This document shows, piece after piece, positions 4,681 through 55,087 of a stretch of DNA of 64,000 nucleotides (positions within the stretch are counted from its first letter, which is position 1; every line of letters starts with the position of its first letter). Position numbers and translations under genes: made by a program. The stretch spans positions 258,808 through 322,807 of the forward strand of contig CAVWLA010000001.1 of NCBI GenBank assembly GCA_963755825.1, given 5' to 3'. The stretch is from an uncultured Acidobacteriota bacterium. Its GTDB lineage: Bacteria; Acidobacteriota; Thermoanaerobaculia; Multivoradales; UBA5704. The notes beneath the pieces were generated by a model. It saw only the letters and a list, made by a program, of their open reading frames with translations. It searched no databases and was not told where the DNA came from.

Positions 4681-4899
4681 ATGGCGAACGTCTACGTTGA
4701 ACCGCGACCGAAGGGGCGTCCAGAAGGAACCCCGATCACAGACTACGTACTCGAATCTGCGGGTGGCCAGACCATAGGGGATGTCTTCAAGACCCAGGCA
4801 GAAGCGGCTCGCTACGCCAGAGATCACGGCCATCATCCACTTTGTGCCCGCGTCCGTAATACCGACAAGGGCAACCCGGATCACTGGCGTTCCTGTTGA
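4681..4899 (+). CDS. Small DUF2188-like protein (72 aa)
   Basis: 72 aa ORF with GGAGGA RBS 6 nt upstream. The charged, Trp-terminal pattern (RVRNTDKGNPDHWRS) resembles DUF2188 small proteins. It lies in a locally lower-GC segment. Confidence 0.45.
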   Translation: MANVYVEPRPKGRPEGTPITDYVLESAGGQTIGDVFKTQAEAARYARDHGHHPLCARVRNTDKGNPDHWRSC

Positions 4900-5301
4900 A
4901 GTCGATCGCATGATTGCCTTGTCGCTGGTCGGCCTGTCCCCCCCCACGCCCGATGCTCGCGCCTTTCGCCGTCCTAAAGCGCGGGAGAAGTTGAAGCTTG
5001 CTGGCTTCCGCGCCATGGTTTGACCTCGGCCCGCTGCCGATACTGGTGAGAGAGATCTGGCGCGAAGTGGGAGCGGTAGAGATGCGTTGCCTTGCCGAGA
5101 GGAGGCCGGCGAGGCGGAGCTCTTCGACGATGCGCGAATAGCCCCCGTGCCGTTGGCGCCCTACGGCCGATAGCCGCGACACAGGGGGCCGGTCTCCCAC
5201 TGCGGATTAGCCAGAAGCTGGCTGGTAACAGTTTCGTGGTCAGCAGGTCTCGGTTTAATCCCGATCGTCGGCCCCAAAAGTCGGCAAAGCAGATCGCTCT
5301 T

Positions 5302-5590
5302 TCAGCGCGATCCGTGACCTTCCCTCAAGTCTGCGGCGTCGCCTTCTGGGGGAGGAGGGGGGGATAGCCGCGAGGCGGCAGTCGCCGGCGAATCGTAGAC
5401 GAAGACGTTCGCCTGGCCGCCGTACATTTGGAGCTGGCGGAGAGACGGCTTGCTGTCTCCATGCTGCCCAGGAGATCGTCCGACGGCGGCGCCGGCGCTA
5501 GATCCCGAGGGCGGCGAGGAACCGGCGACGAGGATCGCGCTGTTCAGGATACGGACCGTCCTGGTGAGAGTGGCTGGCGTGCTGCTCATG
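5302..5590 (-). pseudogene. Degenerate truncated paralog of the small membrane protein gene at 6623-6997
   Basis: Translation from ATG at 5588-5590 gives MSSTPATLTRTVRILNSAIL...SKPSLRQLQMYGGQANVF, matching the N-terminus of the 6623-6997 protein. It has lost the hydrophobic helix through an internal deletion and has a divergent tail. It sits inside direct repeat copy 1. Confidence 0.4.
5389..5590. repeat. Direct repeat copy 1 (~200 bp, imperfect, with ~15 nt deletion) of the 5' end of gene 6623-6997
   Basis: Sequence gaagacgttcgcctggccgccgtacatttggagctggcggag...gctcatg aligns with 6806-7000 at roughly 85% identity. Confidence 0.65.
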
Positions 5591-23605: not shown

Positions 23606-23794
23606 CTACTTGGCGGCATCCACCTCGGCGCGGCCGATCTTCTCTTGCACCTTGCCGACGTTCTTCTGCGCCTTGCCCTTGAGCTCCTGGCCGAGGTCGC
23701 CGGTCACCGCGCCCGCCACTTCGTTCGCCTTGCCGCGGATCTGCTTGTCGACGCCCTCGCCCTGGTTCTTCACGCCGTGATCGCCGATTCCCAT
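23606..23794 (-). CDS. CsbD-family general stress protein (62 aa)
   Basis: MGIGDHGVKNQGEGVDKQIRGKANEVAGAVTGDLGQELKGKAQKNVGKVQEK, the KGKAxExxG repeats typical of CsbD. GGAGA RBS. Confidence 0.7.
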   Translation of the reverse strand: MGIGDHGVKNQGEGVDKQIRGKANEVAGAVTGDLGQELKGKAQKNVGKVQEKIGRAEVDAAK

Positions 23795-23878: not shown

Positions 23879-26629
23879 ATGGATCGTTCCAACTCCTTTC
23901 GATCGGTTCCGCCGCCGCGGCGTCGGCGCGTGCGCCGCCTCGCCGTCGCCGCCCTGTCGCTGGCGCTCGCCGGCGCGCCGCGGCCGGTGCTCGCCGGCGT
24001 CGACCGCTGGACCTCGCTCGGCCCGCCGGGCGGTCGAGCGCTCGGCCTGGCGTTCGCTCCCGCCGAGGCAGGGGAGCTCTACCTCTCCGCCGACGGCGGT
24101 CTCTGGAAGAGCGTCGATGGCGGCTCGTCGTGGTGGCATCTCACCGCCGAGGGCGCCGCCGCCCCGCTCGCCGTCGACCCCTTCGACGACCGCATCGTCT
24201 ACGCCGCTCCCGGCGACCGCATCGAGCTCAGCCAGGACGGCGGGCTCACCTGGACGACGGTGCGCACGTCGCCGGGCGAGCGCTTCGTGGCCCTCGCCGC
24301 CGACCGCCAAGCCGCCGGCACCGTCTATGCCCTCGCGGCCGGGCACGGCGTACTGAAGAGCATCGACCACGGCTGGACCTGGACCGACGCCAGCGCCGGG
24401 CTCGCCGGGTTCGGCGCGTACTCCTCGCTGGCGCTCGACCCCAGCCGCCCGGGCGCGCTCTACGTGTCGACCGCGGGCGGCGTCTACGCCAGCGCCGACG
24501 GCGCCCGCCGCTGGTCGCGGGGCGGGCGCGGCCCCGCCGGCGAGATCGTCGCCGGCCGCCTCGCGGTCGCCGCCGCGCCGGGCGGCGTCGCTGTCGTCTA
24601 CGCCTTCGTCGGCGGCGCCAGCGGCGCCTGCCTGCTGCGCAGCACGGACACCGGCGCCTCGTGGACGGCGGTGGCGGCGCCCGCTCTCCAGCCGCAGGGG
24701 CCCTTCGACTGCCGCGACGTCGCGGTCGATCCGCTGGATGCCGGCCGGCTCTTCCTGCTGGCGAGCGACGGCAGCCTCTACAGCAGCGCCGACGGCGGCG
24801 GCGCCTGGCAGCTCGCCGGCCGCCTGCCCGGTCTCTTCGCGGCTCTCCGCCTCGATCCGCACGACCCGCGCACGCTCTACGCGCTCGCCGGTGCCGGCAG
24901 CGACGACGGGGTGGCGCGCAGCGGCGACGGCGGCCGCACCTGGCGGACGATCGACGACGGCTTCGATGCCCTCTCGATCGAGCGTTTGGCGACCGCCAGC
25001 GGCGCCCTCGGCACGCTCTACGCGCTGGCGACCGACGGCGCGCTGTGGAAGAGCGGCGACTACGGTATCCAATGGGCGCCGCTCGCCATCGGCCTGCCGA
25101 GCTTCGAGCTGGCGGTCGATCCCTTCGACGCGCAGCACGTGCTGCTCGCTCTCTCGAGCGGCACCATCGCCAGCCGCGACGGCGGCGCCACCTGGTCGCC
25201 GGCGCCGGGGGCCGGACCCGCCGGCGTCGTGCGCCTCGCCTTCGATCCCTTCGTCCGCGAGTCGCTCCTCGCCGGCACCGCGGACGGCCACATCTTCGCC
25301 AGCCACGACGCAGGAGCGAGCTGGGCGGCGCTGGCGGCGGCCGGTCCGGCCTGCGCCTCCTGCTCGCCGGCGGCGGTCGCCTTCGTCTTCGATCCCGTCG
25401 ACCCGCGGCATCTCTATGCCGTCGTCGGCGGCCGGCTCGCCGTCAGCGGCGACGCCGGCGCCTCGTGGACGGCGCAGCCGGCGGCCGGCGGCGACCTGCG
25501 GGCGCTCATCCTCGATCCCTCGGCGCCGCGCACGCTCTACGCCGGCGGCTGCGACGGTGTCCGCAAGAGCCCGGACGGCGGCATCACCTGGCGCGCCAGC
25601 GGCGAGGGCATCGCGCTCGCCGCGGCCGGTGCCGCGTCACCCGCGTGCGTGGAGCGGCTGGCGATCGACCCGCGCCGCCCGGAGACGCTCTACGCCGGCG
25701 CCGGCGGCGCGCTCTCCGGCCTCTACCGCAGCACCGATGCCGGCGCCAGCTGGGCGCCGCTCGCCGGCGCCGCCGGCCTGCCGGCCGATGCGGCGGTCCG
25801 CGCGCTGGCGCTCGAGCCGACTGACTCGGGCCGCCTCTATGCCGCGACCTCGTCGCTGGGTGTGGTGACCGGGCGCTTCGCGGGCGCGGCGCCGCTCGGC
25901 CTCGGCGCCACGCCGGCGGGAGCGGCGCGCTACAGCCTGCGCGCCGCCTGGCGGGACTTCGCCGGCGACACCGGGCCGGCGACGCCGGTGGCGCTCGGCG
26001 CCGACGCCGGCTACTTCTCGTTCTTCTCGCCGGCCGACCTCGAGCTCGCCGTCAAGGTGCTCGACGGCAGCGGTGTCAACGGCCACCTGTGGGCGTTCTA
26101 TGGTTCGCTCACCGACGTGCAGTTCGAGCTCACCGTCGCCGACGCGCTGACCGGCGCCGTCCGCTCGTACTTCAATCCCGCTGGGCAGCTGGCGAGCGTC
26201 GGGGATACCGGCGCCCTGCCGGCGCTCGCCGCCGCCGAGCCCCCGGCTCCCTTCCGGCGCCCGCCGCCGATCGCGGCGGTCGCCTTCCCCCCGGCTCCCT
26301 GCGCTGCAGGAGCGGCGGATCTCTGCCTCGCCGCCGGCCGGTTTCGCGCCACGGTCGTATGGCAGACCGCCGCCGGCTCCGGCGCCGGCCAGGCGATTTC
26401 GCTCGGCGACGACGGCGGCTATTTCTGGTTCTTCGTTCCCGGCGTCCCCGAGCTCGCCGTCAAGCTGCTCGACGGCCGCGCCGTCAACGGCCGCTACTGG
26501 CTCTTCTACGGGGCGCTCTCCGACGTCGAGTACGACCTCCGGGTGGAGGACCTGACGACCGGCGCCGTGCGCGCCTACCACAACCCCGCCGGGCACCTGG
26601 CGAGCGCGGCCGACGTCGACGCCTTCTGA
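23879..26629 (+). CDS. Secreted BNR/Asp-box repeat protein (13 S-x-D-x-G-x-T/S-W repeats) with two tandem copies of an unrecognised ~105 aa C-terminal domain
   Basis: ORF 23645-26629 trimmed to ATG 23879 (signal peptide MDRSNSF...LALAGAPRPVLAG). Repeats SVDGGSSWWH, SQDGGLTWTT, SIDHGWTWTD, STDTGASWTA, KSPDGGITWR and others. The C-terminus has two copies of the FxV...DDxGYFWFF...VKxLDG...YW..Y....V......TG....Y.NP module. Confidence 0.75.
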   Translation: MDRSNSFRSVPPPRRRRVRRLAVAALSLALAGAPRPVLAGVDRWTSLGPPGGRALGLAFAPAEAGELYLSADGGLWKSVDGGSSWWHLTAEGAAAPLAVDPFDDRIVYAAPGDRIELSQDGGLTWTTVRTSPGERFVALAADRQAAGTVYALAAGHGVLKSIDHGWTWTDASAGLAGFGAYSSLALDPSRPGALYVSTAGGVYASADGARRWSRGGRGPAGEIVAGRLAVAAAPGGVAVVYAFVGGASGACLLRSTDTGASWTAVAAPALQPQGPFDCRDVAVDPLDAGRLFLLASDGSLYSSADGGGAWQLAGRLPGLFAALRLDPHDPRTLYALAGAGSDDGVARSGDGGRTWRTIDDGFDALSIERLATASGALGTLYALATDGALWKSGDYGIQWAPLAIGLPSFELAVDPFDAQHVLLALSSGTIASRDGGATWSPAPGAGPAGVVRLAFDPFVRESLLAGTADGHIFASHDAGASWAALAAAGPACASCSPAAVAFVFDPVDPRHLYAVVGGRLAVSGDAGASWTAQPAAGGDLRALILDPSAPRTLYAGGCDGVRKSPDGGITWRASGEGIALAAAGAASPACVERLAIDPRRPETLYAGAGGALSGLYRSTDAGASWAPLAGAAGLPADAAVRALALEPTDSGRLYAATSSLGVVTGRFAGAAPLGLGATPAGAARYSLRAAWRDFAGDTGPATPVALGADAGYFSFFSPADLELAVKVLDGSGVNGHLWAFYGSLTDVQFELTVADALTGAVRSYFNPAGQLASVGDTGALPALAAAEPPAPFRRPPPIAAVAFPPAPCAAGAADLCLAAGRFRATVVWQTAAGSGAGQAISLGDDGGYFWFFVPGVPELAVKLLDGRAVNGRYWLFYGALSDVEYDLRVEDLTTGAVRAYHNPAGHLASAADVDAF

Positions 26630-26639
26630 AGACGGCGAC

Positions 26640-26670
26640 GGGTCCGGGCGCCGTGCAGCGTCCGGACCCG
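26640..26670. terminator. Hairpin between convergent genes
   Basis: gggtccgg-N14-ccggaccc immediately after the stop at 26629 and before the 3' end of the minus-strand gene. Confidence 0.35.
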
Positions 26671-26690
26671 CGCGTCGAGCCGGCGCTCCG

Positions 26691-27539
26691 CTACGGACAG
26701 TTGGGGAGCGAGCTGGTGTCCTGGATCGGCTGGAACGCCTCGTTCTGCGGGTTGGTGTAGAGGCGGATGAAGCCGGTGGAGGTGTCGGTGACGGTGATCT
26801 GCGTAAAGACGTTGGTGAGGCCGCCGGCGAAGAACCAGTAGTGACTGTTGAGGGAGCAGCCGTCGAGAACCTTCAGCACCGTCTCGACGTTCGACGCCGA
26901 GAAGAACCAGAGATAGCCGGTGTCGTCGGTGAGCTTGACCACCTGGGCGGCGCCGGCCTGCTGCGGCGTCGAGTACCTGGCGGTGACCTGGAAGCGGTTG
27001 CCTGCTCCCAGGCAGAGCGTCGTGCTGGTCGGCGTGCAGGTGGAGGGCGCCGCCGCCGAGCAGCCGAGCGTCAGGCTATAGGTTCCCACCTGGTTGACGG
27101 CATGGCTCGAGGCAACGGCGAAGTAGGTTCCCGTCGTCGGCGCGGTGAACGAGACCTGCGAGTTGGTGCCGCCGCCGCTGTCGTCGTCCTGGATGACCGG
27201 GTTGCCGTTCTCGTCCTCGATGATGAGGTAGGTGTCGAAGTTCGCCGAGGCGAGGGAGACGGCGATCTGCTGGCCGCCGGTGGCGCTGAACCGGTAGAAG
27301 TCGTCGAAGAAGGAGCCGACGCTGCCGTTCGGCCCCGGCTCGGTGCAGTCGCTCGCCACCAGGCTTCCGGACACCGTCTGGCCGCAGGCGAGGGGAACGA
27401 CGGTGGAGCAGCTCGGGTTGGTGCCGCGGCGGGCGAGCCGCGGTGAACCCGGAGCCGTCGCTGCGGCCGAGGCGTTGGCGGCCGCCGCGGTGGCGAGCAG
27501 GAGTCCGCACGTGGTGGACAAGATGGATGAGCGCTTCAT
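26691..27539 (-). CDS. Secreted protein: signal peptide + PPC-like (pre-peptidase C-terminal-like) domain + shared C-terminal ~105 aa module
   Basis: 282 aa. N-terminal signal peptide, then a GSFFDDFYRFSATGGQQIAVSL...GTYSLTLGC beta-sandwich motif typical of PPC domains. The C-terminus (...LTDDTGYLWFFSASNVETVLKVLDGC...DTSSLPNCP) is homologous to modules in 23879-26629, 27679-28509 and 55088-55999. Confidence 0.65.
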   Translation of the reverse strand: MKRSSILSTTCGLLLATAAAANASAAATAPGSPRLARRGTNPSCSTVVPLACGQTVSGSLVASDCTEPGPNGSVGSFFDDFYRFSATGGQQIAVSLASANFDTYLIIEDENGNPVIQDDDSGGGTNSQVSFTAPTTGTYFAVASSHAVNQVGTYSLTLGCSAAAPSTCTPTSTTLCLGAGNRFQVTARYSTPQQAGAAQVVKLTDDTGYLWFFSASNVETVLKVLDGCSLNSHYWFFAGGLTNVFTQITVTDTSTGFIRLYTNPQNEAFQPIQDTSSLPNCP

Positions 27540-27678
27540 GCGCGTCGTCTCCTTTATGTGGAAACCGCCCCGCGCGGACGGTCCGACCGCCCAAAGATTG
27601 CAAGGCTGTTGCCAGTCGGCGAGCGGCGGGCCGGAGCGCCTGGCGGCGCCCCGGCCTCGCGACGCAGCACGCCGTACC

Positions 27679-28509
27679 CTACGGACAGTTGGGGAAGGCG
27701 CTGGTGTCCTGGATCGGCTCGAAGGCCTGGTTCAGCGGATTGGTGTAGAGGCGGGTGAAGCCGGTCGTCGTGTCTGTCACCTTGATCTGCGTGTCGACGT
27801 TGGTGAGGCCGCCGGCGAAGAACCAGTAGTGGCCGCCGAGCGTGCAGCCGTCGAGCACCTTGAGCACCGTCTCGACGTTCGACGCGTTGAAGAACCACAG
27901 GTAGCCGGTGTCGTCGGTCAGCTTCACGATCTGCGCCTGGCCGCTCTGCTGCGCCGACTGGAAGGTCGCCTGGACCTGGAAGCGGTTGTTGACGAGGCAG
28001 AGCGTCGTCGGCCCCGGAGCGCAGGTGGTGGCGCCGGAGCTGCCGCAGGCGAGGGTCAGGCTGTACGGGCCGGTCGCCGCCGTCTGGGCGCTCGAGGCGA
28101 CGGCGTAGTAGGTGCCGCTGGTGGGCACCGTGAAGGAAGCCCGCGAGTTGGTGCCGCCGCCGCCGTCGTCGTCCTGCTGGATGACGTTGCCGGCACCGTC
28201 CTCGATGAAGAGGTAGGTGTCGACGGTCGCCGAGGAGAGCGAGATCGCGATCTGCTGCCCGGCGGTGGCGGTGAAGCCGTAGAGGTCGTCGTAGAAGAAG
28301 CCGCCGCCGTTGGCCGGCTCCTGGCAATCGGTGGTGGCGAGGGTACCGTTGACCGTCTGACCGCAGCTCAGCGGCGTGAGCGGGCAGGTGGTCCCGGCCC
28401 GCGGCGCGAGCCTGGCGAGCGCCTCCGGCTTGGCCGGCACCCCGGCCGCGGCCGGCCCGGCGGCGGTGAGCAAAAATCCCAAGCTCCAAGCGAACGACGA
28501 ATGTCTCAT
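27679..28509 (-). CDS. Tandem paralog of 26691-27539 (PPC-like domain + shared C-terminal module)
   Basis: 276 aa, same architecture. The C-terminal halves are near-identical (VKLTDDTGYLWFF...VETVLKVLDGC) and the 3' UTRs also match (ctacggacagttgggga). Confidence 0.65.
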   Translation of the reverse strand: MRHSSFAWSLGFLLTAAGPAAAGVPAKPEALARLAPRAGTTCPLTPLSCGQTVNGTLATTDCQEPANGGGFFYDDLYGFTATAGQQIAISLSSATVDTYLFIEDGAGNVIQQDDDGGGGTNSRASFTVPTSGTYYAVASSAQTAATGPYSLTLACGSSGATTCAPGPTTLCLVNNRFQVQATFQSAQQSGQAQIVKLTDDTGYLWFFNASNVETVLKVLDGCTLGGHYWFFAGGLTNVDTQIKVTDTTTGFTRLYTNPLNQAFEPIQDTSAFPNCP

Positions 28510-28594: not shown

Positions 28595-29290
28595 TCACCA
28601 CTCGATGTTCTGCAAGCTGCCTGCCGGGGCCGTCACGGCGAGCGAGCCGTGGAGGCCGCCGCCGGTCACCGTACCGTGGATCGACTGGGGAGGGAAGGCC
28701 GCGGGAGCGGCGGCGGCGAGGCTCGGGAGGGCGAGCTGTGAGGTGTCGCCGGCGATCGTGACGTCGATCTGGAACGCGCCGGCGCCTGTCGCGGTGACCT
28801 GGCCGACGAACGCCAGCGCCGGTCCGTGGGCGAGGCCGCTCGCCGATTCGTAGCGCGCGCCGTGGAGCAGGCCGTGCACCGGCCCTGCCGCCCAGCCGTC
28901 GCCGTCCCGCAGCGCCTTGATGGCGGTCGCCACATAGGGGTTCTGCGCCGCGAGCGCGCCTTCCATCGCGGCCGCGCTCGGCAGCGGCGCCGGCGCGGCG
29001 GCGGTCGGCGCCGCGATCGCGGAAGGGTCCGGCGCGGGAGTCGCGCGGCCGCAGCCGGCCTGCGGCGCTCCCCAGGCGCGGCAGTAGGCGAGGTAGCTGT
29101 CGCCGCCCCAGGGCAGCGCGCCGCCTCCGCACTCGCAGAAGCCGCCCGCCGCCGCCGCGGCGCAGTCGGCCTGCGCACAGCTCCCCGAGCTGCAGTCCTG
29201 CGCGCAGGCGAGGCCCTGCGCCCGAGACGCCGGCGCCGCGGCGGCGAGGAGCAAGAGGGCGGTGAGAGAGGTGAGCCAGAGAGTGCGCAT
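28595..29290 (-). CDS. Secreted hypothetical protein with Cys-rich N-terminal segment
   Basis: 231 aa with signal peptide MRTLWLTSLTALLLLAAAAPASRAQG, 10 Cys in the first 80 residues (CAQDCSSGSCAQADC...CECGGG) and an Ala/Gly-rich remainder. No recognisable domain. Confidence 0.4.
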   Translation of the reverse strand: MRTLWLTSLTALLLLAAAAPASRAQGLACAQDCSSGSCAQADCAAAAAGGFCECGGGALPWGGDSYLAYCRAWGAPQAGCGRATPAPDPSAIAAPTAAAPAPLPSAAAMEGALAAQNPYVATAIKALRDGDGWAAGPVHGLLHGARYESASGLAHGPALAFVGQVTATGAGAFQIDVTIAGDTSQLALPSLAAAAPAAFPPQSIHGTVTGGGLHGSLAVTAPAGSLQNIEW

Positions 29291-29314
29291 CGGTCGGCCT
29301 CCGTCAGTGCTCGC

Positions 29315-30625
29315 TCAGGGTCGCTGCTTCCGCGCCGGCGGCGGCTTCGGCTGCCGGTAGGGCGGGAAGGTGAGCAATCGGATGTACCCGGCGAAGACGT
29401 TGTCGGTGTTCTCCGGGTGATAGGTGGCCCAGGTGATGACGCCCTGACCGGAGTCATTGACGTCAAAGTGGTAGTTTTCGGCTGCAAGAAAGTCGGTTGT
29501 GATCAAGAGAGGCGGCGCAGCTTGGCGTGTGTTGGGGTCGAATCGGCTGACGTAAATGCTGGTGTCCCCCGACGGCTCTGCGACGCCCCAGGTGAGGGCG
29601 AAGGTCCCGTCGGCCAAGCCGCGCGCCTGTCCTTGCAGGAAGCCAGAGGGTGGCGCCTGACCCAACTCGAGCGCATCTGTGAGCGGTGCGCCGAGTTGGT
29701 CGAAGAGACGAACATACAGCGCATAGAGATGAGCTTGTTCGGGCACCGCCCAGATAAGCAGAAACCTGCCATCCGGCGCGATGCCAACTCCGACGCCGCC
29801 ATCACGAATTCCGAACGCGCCTTCGGCCTGAGCCACATTCTGTGAGAGCAGAGGCGTCTGCGGTTGTCCGGCTCCTGTAAAAATTTGGAAACCCAGCGGG
29901 CAGGGCCTTGGTGGGACGAAGCTTCTTGCGCAACGCGAGTAGAGAACGATGAAGCGACCTTGGCCATTGATCGCCGCGTCGTCGAAATAGAGCCGGCTGG
30001 GATTCGTGGCGAGTGCGACGGGCACGCCGAGCGGCTTTGTATCGAAGTCAAAAACCTGGATGCTCGGTTGTCGGAATGGGTCTCCATTCGGATAGGCGCC
30101 ATCCAGGCGGAACATCACCGGCAGGAACAATGGATCCAATCCGCCGCTCCACCGATAGTAGAGCTGGTAGTACTCGATGTCCGAATTGGGCCAAGTGAAT
30201 GAGCTCTTCAGAATGTTGTCTTGGCGATCGAGGAGAACTGCGGCGCTGGTCTTCGCTAGATAGTGTTGCCAGGTTACCAGGTAGTGGTCACCGAGCGGCA
30301 CGATGCCGCCTGTGTCCACCGGCCGACCCGCCTCAGGCACGAAGAGGTTACCGAGCAAAGCGCCATCGGGAGCGTAGCTCTGGACCTCGAACTGTGGATA
30401 TCCGTCGGTCCCAGGAGGCACGATCGTCGCTGTTCCAGAGAGGGCGAAGCCGCCATCGGCGAGAAGGGCCACGCTCTGGTAGTAGTGGCTGGCAAGAAAC
30501 GGAACATTGAGGACTGGCTCCGCGTGGACGACGTCGTTGCTCGCCGCGCTGAGGTTGTGAGCCAGCAAGGCCACGCACGCCGCGGCCACGAGGGACCTCC
30601 GACTGTGAGCACGATCGATCTTCAA
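29315..30625 (-). CDS. Secreted hypothetical protein (436 aa)
   Basis: Signal peptide and moderate GC. No motif recognised. Pro-rich C-terminus. Confidence 0.4.
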   Translation of the reverse strand: MKIDRAHSRRSLVAAACVALLAHNLSAASNDVVHAEPVLNVPFLASHYYQSVALLADGGFALSGTATIVPPGTDGYPQFEVQSYAPDGALLGNLFVPEAGRPVDTGGIVPLGDHYLVTWQHYLAKTSAAVLLDRQDNILKSSFTWPNSDIEYYQLYYRWSGGLDPLFLPVMFRLDGAYPNGDPFRQPSIQVFDFDTKPLGVPVALATNPSRLYFDDAAINGQGRFIVLYSRCARSFVPPRPCPLGFQIFTGAGQPQTPLLSQNVAQAEGAFGIRDGGVGVGIAPDGRFLLIWAVPEQAHLYALYVRLFDQLGAPLTDALELGQAPPSGFLQGQARGLADGTFALTWGVAEPSGDTSIYVSRFDPNTRQAAPPLLITTDFLAAENYHFDVNDSGQGVITWATYHPENTDNVFAGYIRLLTFPPYRQPKPPPARKQRP

Positions 30626-30637
30626 CTTTGACTACTC

Positions 30638-32266
30638 CTATTGGCAGCTGCTCTGGAAGTAGCTCAAGAGCACCGCGATGTCGTCCCTGTAGAACGGGGG
30701 AGCCGGGGCGGAATACAACGTATTTGCCAGGAGCTGGGAAAAAGAGCTCGACCACACGGCTCCTGTCTTGGGATCGGACCATTGCAGCTTCCAGCAACCG
30801 CCGACCGTGACGCGAAATTGGAGGCCTGTCTGATATCCGGTGGTGGATCCGTTGCCGCAAGAGAATTCGTGGTATCCGTCATTTTTGGGCGGCCCGTTAA
30901 GCACCTGGCTCATTGGCAGGGCGTGATGGATATAGAGTGCGTAGTTGTAGGTGGATGCCATGGTCGACCAATACGCATTTGCGTTCTGTGTGAAGCAGGT
31001 CCCTCGGTCGATCATCCCCCACGCCGGCACTCCCGCGCACCAGTCGCTGGCGCCGTTGCAGCTCGCCTGCTGCACGGCGGTGAGGTCGATCGGCGTGGTG
31101 CTCACGATCCCCGGCTTGAGGAAGCTGTAGAGCACGCCGAGCTGCGTCGCGGCGTCCTGGCTGCTCTGCACGCTGCGGTCGTAGCTGTAGCCGGCGAAGA
31201 GGCCGCCGGTGTACATGGCGAACTCCCAGGCCTCGGCGCGCACGTCGTCCGCCGTCCTGAAGTTGTAGTTGAGATTGGGGATGGCCTGGCCTTCGTCGAA
31301 GCCGATGCCGAGGCCGGCGCGTTGGCCGGCGATCGAGGCGTCGCGGAAGACGGCGATGGCGCCGTCGACGCCGGGGTTGTTGATCTCGGTGTAATGCGCG
31401 CTCTCCAGCTTGACGCCGGGCACCTGCCAGCCGAACGACGGCGCCATGTGGCCGTTGATCATCACCAGGTGGCTGGCGTCGTTCGCCTGGATGGTGGCGA
31501 GCATCGCGGTCTGCCAGTCGATCACTTGGCCGGCGGTAGCCATTGAGGTGTTGAGGTCGGGCTCGTTGGCGATCTCCCAGATGAGGTTGGGATATTTCTT
31601 CAGCTGGTTGACGACCGCCGCGACCGCCGCCTTCTGTGCGCTCCGCGCCGTGATGTTCTGCGCCACGGTATCCGTCTTGTGGACGGGATCGTCGAAGCTC
31701 GCGAAGTACTTCTGCGCCGTGAAGCCCTGGCCGGAGACCGTGTTGGCGGGATTGAACGGGCTCGTCGACCAGTTGCCGTCCCACGGATCGAGGAGGGTCA
31801 GCTCGACGATGATGCCCTTGTTGTAGGCGTCGCAGAGGACCCTGTCGAGATTGCCGAGGTTGACGGTGTCGAGCTGGCCGAGATTCCACTTGCCCGCGAC
31901 ATAGACGAAGGGCTGCTCGTTGGCGAAGGGCGCCCCGTAGGCTCCCATCCCCGGGCTGTGGTTGAGGATGCTGTAGTTGCGGACGAGGTTGTTCTTGTCG
32001 GCCTGGAGGATCGAGAAGACGCTCGCAAAGGTGCTGAGAGCGCAGTACTGCGCCGCCCGCTGCGGCTGCGCGATGTGGCAGAGGTACTCGTACGACATGC
32101 CAAGGAGCGGCAGGGTCGCTCCCTTGTAGGAGAAGTAGTGGTGGTTGCTGGTGAGCGCGACCGGCGCTCCGGTCGGTGAGCAGGTCTGGGCGCGAGCGGC
32201 GGCCGCGATCGACGCCGAGGCGATCAGAACGGCGACGAGCTGCCGGGACCGGCGGACGGCAGGCAT
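30638..32266 (-). CDS. Secreted putative glycoside hydrolase, GH5-like TIM-barrel
   Basis: Signal peptide MPAVRRSRQLVAVLIASASIAAAARA. LIWEIANEPD matches the GH5 catalytic acid/base NEP motif. Cys-rich C-terminal domain. Family assignment is tentative. Confidence 0.5.
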   Translation of the reverse strand: MPAVRRSRQLVAVLIASASIAAAARAQTCSPTGAPVALTSNHHYFSYKGATLPLLGMSYEYLCHIAQPQRAAQYCALSTFASVFSILQADKNNLVRNYSILNHSPGMGAYGAPFANEQPFVYVAGKWNLGQLDTVNLGNLDRVLCDAYNKGIIVELTLLDPWDGNWSTSPFNPANTVSGQGFTAQKYFASFDDPVHKTDTVAQNITARSAQKAAVAAVVNQLKKYPNLIWEIANEPDLNTSMATAGQVIDWQTAMLATIQANDASHLVMINGHMAPSFGWQVPGVKLESAHYTEINNPGVDGAIAVFRDASIAGQRAGLGIGFDEGQAIPNLNYNFRTADDVRAEAWEFAMYTGGLFAGYSYDRSVQSSQDAATQLGVLYSFLKPGIVSTTPIDLTAVQQASCNGASDWCAGVPAWGMIDRGTCFTQNANAYWSTMASTYNYALYIHHALPMSQVLNGPPKNDGYHEFSCGNGSTTGYQTGLQFRVTVGGCWKLQWSDPKTGAVWSSSFSQLLANTLYSAPAPPFYRDDIAVLLSYFQSSCQ

Positions 32267-32372
32267 GATCGAATCCCTCCGATGAGGATGAGCGCTCGCA
32301 TCGACTTCGCACCCACAGTAGCATCGAAACCACGGCGAGCCGCCGGGGGCCGTCTGCTACACTTCCGCGGCC

Positions 32373-54775: not shown

Positions 54776-55087
54776 TCGGCGGCTCCCGCCGCGGCCCAGC
54801 GGCGTGCGGGTCTCGCGCCTTGTTGGTTCATCGATCTCTCCGTGCGCGAGGCGTGCGGTTCGCGAAGGGGTGCCGCGCGGCTGCTGCTGCCGCTCGGCGG
54901 AGCGAGTGTAGCCCAGCGGGTTGCGCGCTGCAGATGGCTGGCGATTTCGTTGTCGCCGGTCGATGCGGAACGGTCTGTGGCAAGAGCTCGCGGATTGGCG
55001 GGGCGCCGCCCGCTGGCTGTAACATGACCGGGCAGCGCCGCGCCTCTAGCTCCGACGATGAACCTCATCTCTCATGGAGGAAGCTCG

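Follow-up and report, generated by a model that had tools for sequence, protein, structure and literature searches.

A stretch of 64,000 nucleotides from an uncultured Acidobacteriota bacterium (contig CAVWLA010000001.1, positions 258,808 to 322,807; hereafter the window, to which all coordinates refer unless another contig is named) encodes four secreted proteins that share a module of about 114 amino acids, present in five copies and closing each of the four polypeptide chains. The analysis described below indicates that this module very probably constitutes a genuine, undescribed and autonomous domain family of the extracytoplasmic space. It is an uncharacterized family, effectively at the level of a domain of unknown function, rather than a new kind of system. 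As to what the module does, the reading we prefer, and in which our confidence is about evenly balanced, is that of a non-catalytic module for binding or surface retention, a role inferred from its arrangement, conservation and predicted structure.

The four carrier genes are BNR (23879..26629, + strand, 916 amino acids), encoding a secreted BNR/Sortilin-Vps10-type beta-propeller followed by two tandem C-terminal modules; PPC1 (26691..27539, − strand, 282 amino acids) and its tandem paralog PPC2 (27679..28509, − strand, 276 amino acids), each encoding a signal peptide, a PPC domain (pre-peptidase C-terminal type) and one module; and P55 (55058..55999, + strand, 313 amino acids), encoding a secreted protein with a beta-rich, unassigned N-terminal domain ahead of its module. 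The first three genes are adjacent, and P55 is distant. All four products begin with a basic and then hydrophobic segment that, read from the sequence by eye, resembles a signal peptide. A profile hidden Markov model (HMM) built from the five copies was searched against the six-frame translation of the window, and a second, independent HMM of 220 instances, drawn from database and genome relatives only, was made to avoid circularity; both detected exactly five copies in that translation, and neither detected a sixth. With the independent HMM, the reference copy, that of PPC2 (27682..28023, − strand), has an independent E-value (iE) of 4.4e-54, and the copy of PPC1 (26694..27038, − strand) is matched over its full length, 1–114, with an iE of 3.9e-52; both contain four Cys residues and end in ...PNCP. 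The copy of P55 (55634..55996, + strand; iE 5.4e-31) carries a 4-residue insertion, ends in ...AFVCP and is 41% identical to the PPC2 copy. In the BNR protein, the internal copy BNR-a (25907..26230, + strand; iE 4.4e-25) has no Cys and is without the N-terminal Cys1–Cys9 hairpin, and the C-terminal copy BNR-b (26300..26626, + strand; iE 4.3e-30) ends in ...DVDAF; the two are joined by a flexible, Pro/Ala-rich linker, ALPALAAAEPPAPFRRPPPIAAVAFPPAP (26231..26299, + strand). Pairwise BLASTP comparison of the copies gave 40–76% identity with E-values from 5e-21 to 3e-59, far beyond chance, and alignment of the five C-terminal segments revealed 22 invariant columns. A first-pass annotation of the window, made by a model from the sequence alone, had placed five copies in four secreted proteins, and this count is borne out by both HMMs; the reading frames of BNR, PPC1 and PPC2 lie where it had put them, whereas the P55 start that it gave, 55088, is the second Met, an alternative start within an open reading frame (ORF) that begins at 55058. 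Its estimate of about 105 amino acids for the module was too short.

No described family accounts for the module. In the four proteins, no model of Pfam-A (2025 copy) or NCBIfam 20.0 covers it at E ≤ 1; no family recurred among 35 modules searched with Pfam and NCBIfam at E ≤ 10, nor over the module in 65 full-length relatives; and no match to it came from the sequences of all PDB chains, searched with a profile at E ≤ 10. A literature search on the module, on Acidobacteriota sorting domains and on Thermoanaerobaculia secreted proteins yielded nothing relevant. The module was thus rightly called unrecognized, even at these permissive thresholds, and the outcome named beforehand as refuting, a match to an already-defined domain, did not occur. 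The scattered matches that did appear were judged to be noise, namely DUF6778 (5 of the 35 modules, best E 0.012), GGR_cat (4 of the 35), a YdjY domain (21 bits against a cutoff of 50) and Ig_J (20.9 bits against 29), as was a stray match to CBM_19 (E 0.068, in 1 of the 35 modules), the sole one to a Pfam carbohydrate-binding module (CBM). The idea that the module is a diverged PPC domain was likewise rejected, hhalign giving a probability of 4.7% for the pair.

The predicted structure is in keeping with an independently folding unit. For the PPC2 module, AlphaFold2 supplied with a 35-sequence alignment produced a model of ten beta-strands and no helices, with a predicted local distance difference test (pLDDT) score of 96.5 and a predicted template-modeling (pTM) score of 0.89. 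A Foldseek search with this model found nothing at E ≤ 1e-3 in the PDB (best TM-score, 0.31) or in BFVD, so that the absence of a structural relative refers to solved structures and viral models. In the model of the BNR tandem region (240 amino acids; pLDDT 90.5, pTM 0.85), BNR-a exceeds a pLDDT of 90 and BNR-b one of 93, both following the strand order of the PPC2 module, and the linker between them falls to 55–60; the pTM value suggests possible packing of one copy against the other. The module also contains an invariant stretch of aromatic and polar residues, W43-F44-F45-x3-N49-x-E51, most of which falls within the loop joining strands 39–43 and 52–59. This stretch is adjoined by the conserved acidic residues D38, D84 and D106 and is a candidate binding site in the model.

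Four Cys residues, at module positions 1, 9, 60 and 113, are conserved, occurring together in 197 of 225 instances (pattern CCCC), with the remainder distributed over CC.. (17), CCC. (4), ..CC (4) and.CCC (3); Cys60 is lost alone in none of the 225, and Cys60 and Cys113 go together. The first-pass annotation had counted three, because its consensus began at Cys9; there are four, in two covarying pairs, as would fit two disulfides. A predicted Cys60–Cys113 bond would tie the last, C-terminal strand to a central strand, and a predicted Cys1–Cys9 bond would clamp the first hairpin. The even numbers of Cys residues, together with the signal peptides, suggest that the module folds outside the cytoplasm. 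The BNR copies represent a Cys-poor variant, in which BNR-b follows the CC.. pattern, keeping Cys1 and Cys9 without Cys60 and Cys113, and BNR-a is Cys-less.

The family is large, sharply defined and common in metagenomes. A word-indexed search retrieved 1,620 relatives, all labeled 'hypothetical' or carrying no name, and an exhaustive HMMER search of 1.84 billion representatives (clusters at 50% identity) gave 10,620 matches at E ≤ 1e-3 and 6,063 at E ≤ 1e-30; nearly all of the 150 matches listed contain two copies. When one genome of each GTDB species was scanned with one narrow pattern, at least 567 stretches were confirmed; the best 80 loci, which were kept and form a sample biased to near relatives of the query, fall in 48 assemblies (at most 5 loci in each), nearly all of them metagenome-assembled genomes (MAGs) of Thermoanaerobaculia or other Acidobacteriota. 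Among the loci kept, therefore, the family is enriched in this lineage, in line with the earlier suggestion of a lineage-related family on secreted proteins. About 40% of the module positions are conserved at ≥90%. Modules within one assembly are 62.7% identical and those of different assemblies 60.2%, a difference (+2.6%) that 4 of 500 permutations reach; species-specific homogenization of the modules was considered and set aside, the effect being very small. The passengers are diverse, the partner domains in 65 two-copy representatives being Sortilin/BNR (10), Vgb_lyase (3), PKD (3), Peptidase_S8, SBBP, SGL and NHL (2 each), and M4, LRR, LVIVD, BACON, Big_9/cadherin and PPC (1 each). The combination of a PPC domain with the module also occurs in other genomes (loci L001, L002, L029, L072 and others).

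The placement of the module in its carriers is strict in one respect and versatile in another. It lies at most 3 residues from the stop codon in 84 of 86 genome ORFs, and 80 of these 84 terminal ORFs have the tail xCP, so that the terminal position proposed for the window proteins holds far more strictly than had been implied. Two copies are present in 16 of the 86 ORFs. Among 70 two-copy representatives, 63 carry the modules at the C-terminus, 6 directly after the signal peptide and 1 internally; tandem copies are separated by Ala/Ser/Pro-rich linkers (median length, 38 amino acids). Further domains follow the modules in several proteins: in P0129 the signal peptide is succeeded by two modules and a region containing an HExxH motif, PKD and Big_9 domains come after the modules in P0141, and BACON repeats do so in P0189 and P0192. 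One of the two non-terminal cases in the 86 genome ORFs (L021; 16-2739, + strand, DASZZP010000047.1) contains a BNR-like propeller, two internal modules and a concanavalin-like Laminin_G_3 domain. In the same MAG, which belongs to the Thermoanaerobaculia, another ORF (L044; 2497-3705, + strand, DASZZP010000097.1) encodes a signal peptide, one module and a Peptidase_S74 intramolecular chaperone that includes a coiled coil (35.4 bits, cutoff 22); should this chaperone cleave itself off, as it does in phage fibers, the module would become the mature C-terminus of a trimer. The tandem copies, the N-terminal placements and the confident independent folding together support the earlier view of an autonomous domain rather than a cleaved tail.

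An IMG/VR scan gave two module matches. The phage copy lies on a 56.8-kb viral contig (UViG_3300050821_010778) that encodes an endolysin at 4719..5525 (phrog_181, 3.7e-77), and forms the Cys-less C-terminus of a 301-amino-acid ORF without a signal peptide (L082; 7365-8270, + strand; iE 6e-21). These features would fit a version that folds in the cytoplasm without disulfides, and the phage protein could bind the host surface via its module.

We favor binding or retention because of the tandem copies, the flexible linkers, the N-terminal placements, the phage copy and the invariant aromatic and polar stretch. In the predicted mode of action, the module would target its carriers by binding a ligand common to many species, most likely a glycan of the cell envelope or the extracellular matrix, and, being joined to unrelated passengers by short or Pro/Ala/Ser-rich linkers, would retain these secreted proteins on the cell surface or the substrate, where tandem copies would add avidity. 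The little drift between species seen in the identities within and between assemblies fits a ligand that is conserved across species. Several observations, however, weigh against this reading: the partners are mostly not carbohydrate-active enzymes; a glycoside hydrolase family 5 (GH5) gene neighboring the carriers in the window is without the module; and the strict terminal position with its Cys-Pro tail, like the unusually high conservation, is more typical of a motif read by a machinery.

The terminal position and the high conservation speak for the main rival explanation, which we regard as rather unlikely: that the module is a C-terminal secretion or sorting domain, read by a lineage-specific machinery (Thermoanaerobaculia and other Acidobacteriota) for outer-membrane export or attachment, and perhaps removed or covalently anchored afterwards. 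It would account for the 84 of 86 terminal ORFs with their conserved Cys-Pro end and for the 63 C-terminal cases among the 70 two-copy representatives, for the presence of several copies in single genomes (as many as 5 in the 80 loci kept; four proteins in the 64-kb window), and for conservation that is very high and uniform across genomes. The passengers, which include propellers, S8 and M4 proteases, PKD, LRR, SBBP, LVIVD and BACON domains, are also cargo-like, and known sorting systems carry a similar set of cargo. Tandem copies are nevertheless common, and an internal copy would not be terminal; there are genuine N-terminal and internal placements with further domains after the module; no known sorting-domain model matches; and a Cys-less copy occurs in a phage-encoded protein that has no signal peptide. 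Nor did ORF clustering of the 80 loci reveal a gene family consistently adjacent to the carriers; PBP1-type and MacB-type permease neighbors (at most 9 loci) were judged to reflect synteny or family abundance rather than functional linkage, and another cluster was an antisense artefact. The more specific proposition that the module is the recognition tag of an undescribed sorting or surface-attachment pathway in Thermoanaerobaculia and other Acidobacteriota is, in our estimate, an unlikely one, although the bias in position leaves room for it.

A docking or oligomerization domain, dockerin-like in its logic and assembling secreted proteins on a scaffold or in multimers, appears quite improbable. 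One conserved module is indeed common to many unrelated secreted proteins per genome, it stands directly upstream of the fiber-trimerizing Peptidase_S74 chaperone in L044, and the pTM of the BNR tandem model would allow the copies to pack together. No candidate partner was identified, however; species-specific co-evolution with such a partner predicts a larger gap than that between 62.7% and 60.2% identity, and the all-beta module is not dockerin-like in sequence or structure. That the module is an intramolecular folding, stabilizing or pro-domain-like appendage, later clipped off, is very unlikely: it is C-terminal and found with proteases and with PPC domains, which are pre-peptidase C-terminal domains according to Pfam, yet proteases are a minority of the passengers, there is no catalytic domain in PPC1 or PPC2 for it to assist, tandem and N-terminal arrangements exist, and hhalign detects no relation to the PPC domain.

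Returning to the carriers in the window, the PPC domain is the sole domain matched ahead of the module in PPC1 (27114..27302, − strand; Pfam PF04151, 38.8 bits against a cutoff of 25.9, E 1.7e-09, amino acids 80–142) and in PPC2 (28096..28287, − strand; 42 bits). The two proteins are 61% identical, and their genes are 78% identical over 717 nucleotides (blastn). Residual similarity continues past the stop codons for about 56–60 nucleotides (60-nucleotide window; score reached by 0 of 1000 shuffles) and is also found in the 100 nucleotides upstream (3 of 1000 shuffles), which marks PPC1 and PPC2 as a genuine tandem duplication of an entire gene unit. The first-pass annotation had called this duplication recent, with matching 3' untranslated regions. 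The tandem duplication stands; its recency does not, because of the 61% protein identity and because a homologue from another MAG (L001, 77.5%) resembles PPC2 more than PPC1 does. The 3' similarity is likewise real but weak, at roughly 70% over those 56–60 nucleotides. Each 3' region, that of PPC1 (26631..26690, − strand; blastn alignment extending to 26635) and that of PPC2 (27619..27678, − strand), contains a GC-rich hairpin, with minimum free energies of −39.9 kcal/mol (z −3.0) and −40.6 kcal/mol (z −2.0), respectively. The hairpins have 13–14 base pairs, are without a U tract and are kept though the stem sequences differ. A pattern scan found no intrinsic terminators; the hairpins look like terminators or stabilizers.

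The BNR protein matches Pfam Sortilin-Vps10 (2.3e-24) and passes the cutoff of the NCBIfam equivalog NF045728, 'F510_1955 family glycosylhydrolase' (198.7 bits against 175). Its leader (23879-23990, + strand) is unusually Arg-rich, PPPRRRRVRRLAVAALSLALAG, and could be a twin-arginine translocation (Tat) rather than a Sec signal. For the N-terminal part of P55, Pfam gave a PKD match below threshold and nothing else. The window has 71% G+C, and the genes around the carriers are of an ordinary chromosomal kind (mevalonate pathway, GlnRS, M1 peptidase, MiaB-like, MacB-type permease and DnaB); the DnaB of this 2.88-Mb contig groups with sequences from Thermoanaerobaculia. Between a PhzF-like gene and BNR lies a small CsbD-like gene (about 23606-23794, − strand; MGIGDHGVKNQGEG...), whose Pfam CsbD score of 37.5 bits is slightly below the cutoff of 40. 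Immediately beyond PPC2, the − strand carries two genes whose products have no Pfam match and begin with a signal-peptide-like segment, 28595..29290 (231 amino acids, with a Cys-rich N-terminus) and 29315..30625 (436 amino acids), followed by the GH5 cellulase-like gene (30638..32356); the module is absent from all three. Between 29500 and 32000 the G+C content falls to 0.58–0.63, compared with 0.71 in the window as a whole, and because of this drop the region 28595-32356 may have been acquired as an islet of genes for secreted proteins.

Within the Acidobacteriota, the Thermoanaerobaculia form a class that is widespread in soils and sediments and has hardly been cultured. A large number of their secreted proteins carry the module, and those bearing a name are labeled just 'hypothetical protein'. 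A family model would immediately improve annotation and help to predict the extracellular and surface proteome, and a confident AlphaFold2 model without a close solved relative makes the module a worthwhile target for structure determination. Should it prove to be a sorting tag or a surface anchor, it would show in what way enzymes and adhesins are displayed in this lineage, and would provide a portable tag for surface display or affinity purposes.

The module is worth comparing with known modules of secreted proteins. The PPC domain (PF04151) resembles it as a beta-rich accessory domain of secreted bacterial proteins, but its matches are confined to the N-terminal half of both PPC proteins (amino acids 75–142), outside the module. 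Type I dockerins (PF00404) share the logic of one conserved module tagging many secreted proteins, usually at the C-terminus; the dockerin, however, is a helical, Ca-binding duplication of about 70 residues, whereas the module is all-beta, stapled by predicted Cys pairs and without a Pfam match, and no cohesin-like partner was found for it. With regard to carbohydrate binding, the beta-sandwich of a GH98 enzyme (2wmi_A) and a putative CBM of an Aeromonas RTX adhesin (9q5u_A) superpose on no more than 71–75 of 114 residues, with 8–10% identity. The module also differs from CBMs in matching no Pfam CBM family, in passengers that are mostly no carbohydrate-active enzymes and in a terminal position much stricter than that of typical CBMs. 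The earlier statement that it is none of the known sorting signals agrees with both the model searches and the sequence features. Unlike the tags of PEP-CTERM/exosortase systems, the module ends in ...QDTSAFPNCP, ...AFVCP or ...DVDAF without a hydrophobic helix, and unlike those of GlyGly-CTERM/rhombosortase systems, its ends have no Gly-Gly followed by a transmembrane helix; neither type gave an NCBIfam match. A parallel in placement is the C-terminal domain (CTD) of the type IX secretion system (T9SS; TIGR04183/TIGR04131), which is likewise an all-beta domain within the range of about 80–115 residues and, in one genome, terminates numerous secreted proteins that are otherwise unrelated, with similar passengers (proteases, propellers, PKD and LRR). 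In distinction from it, the module has ten strands and two predicted disulfides, does not show the Ig-like beta-sandwich of solved T9SS CTDs, and, rather than being a single obligatory terminal copy, is often tandem and sometimes N-terminal. The families TIGR04183, TIGR04131 and Por_Secre_tail matched none of the four proteins (E ≤ 1) or the 35 modules (E ≤ 10), the window genes scanned include no T9SS component, and Acidobacteriota are not known to carry this system. If the module were a sorting tag after all, it would serve the same function as the T9SS CTD or PEP-CTERM/exosortase, with a beta fold that has no solved relative, and its carriers would mark out the surface proteome of a soil lineage that is abundant and largely uncultured.

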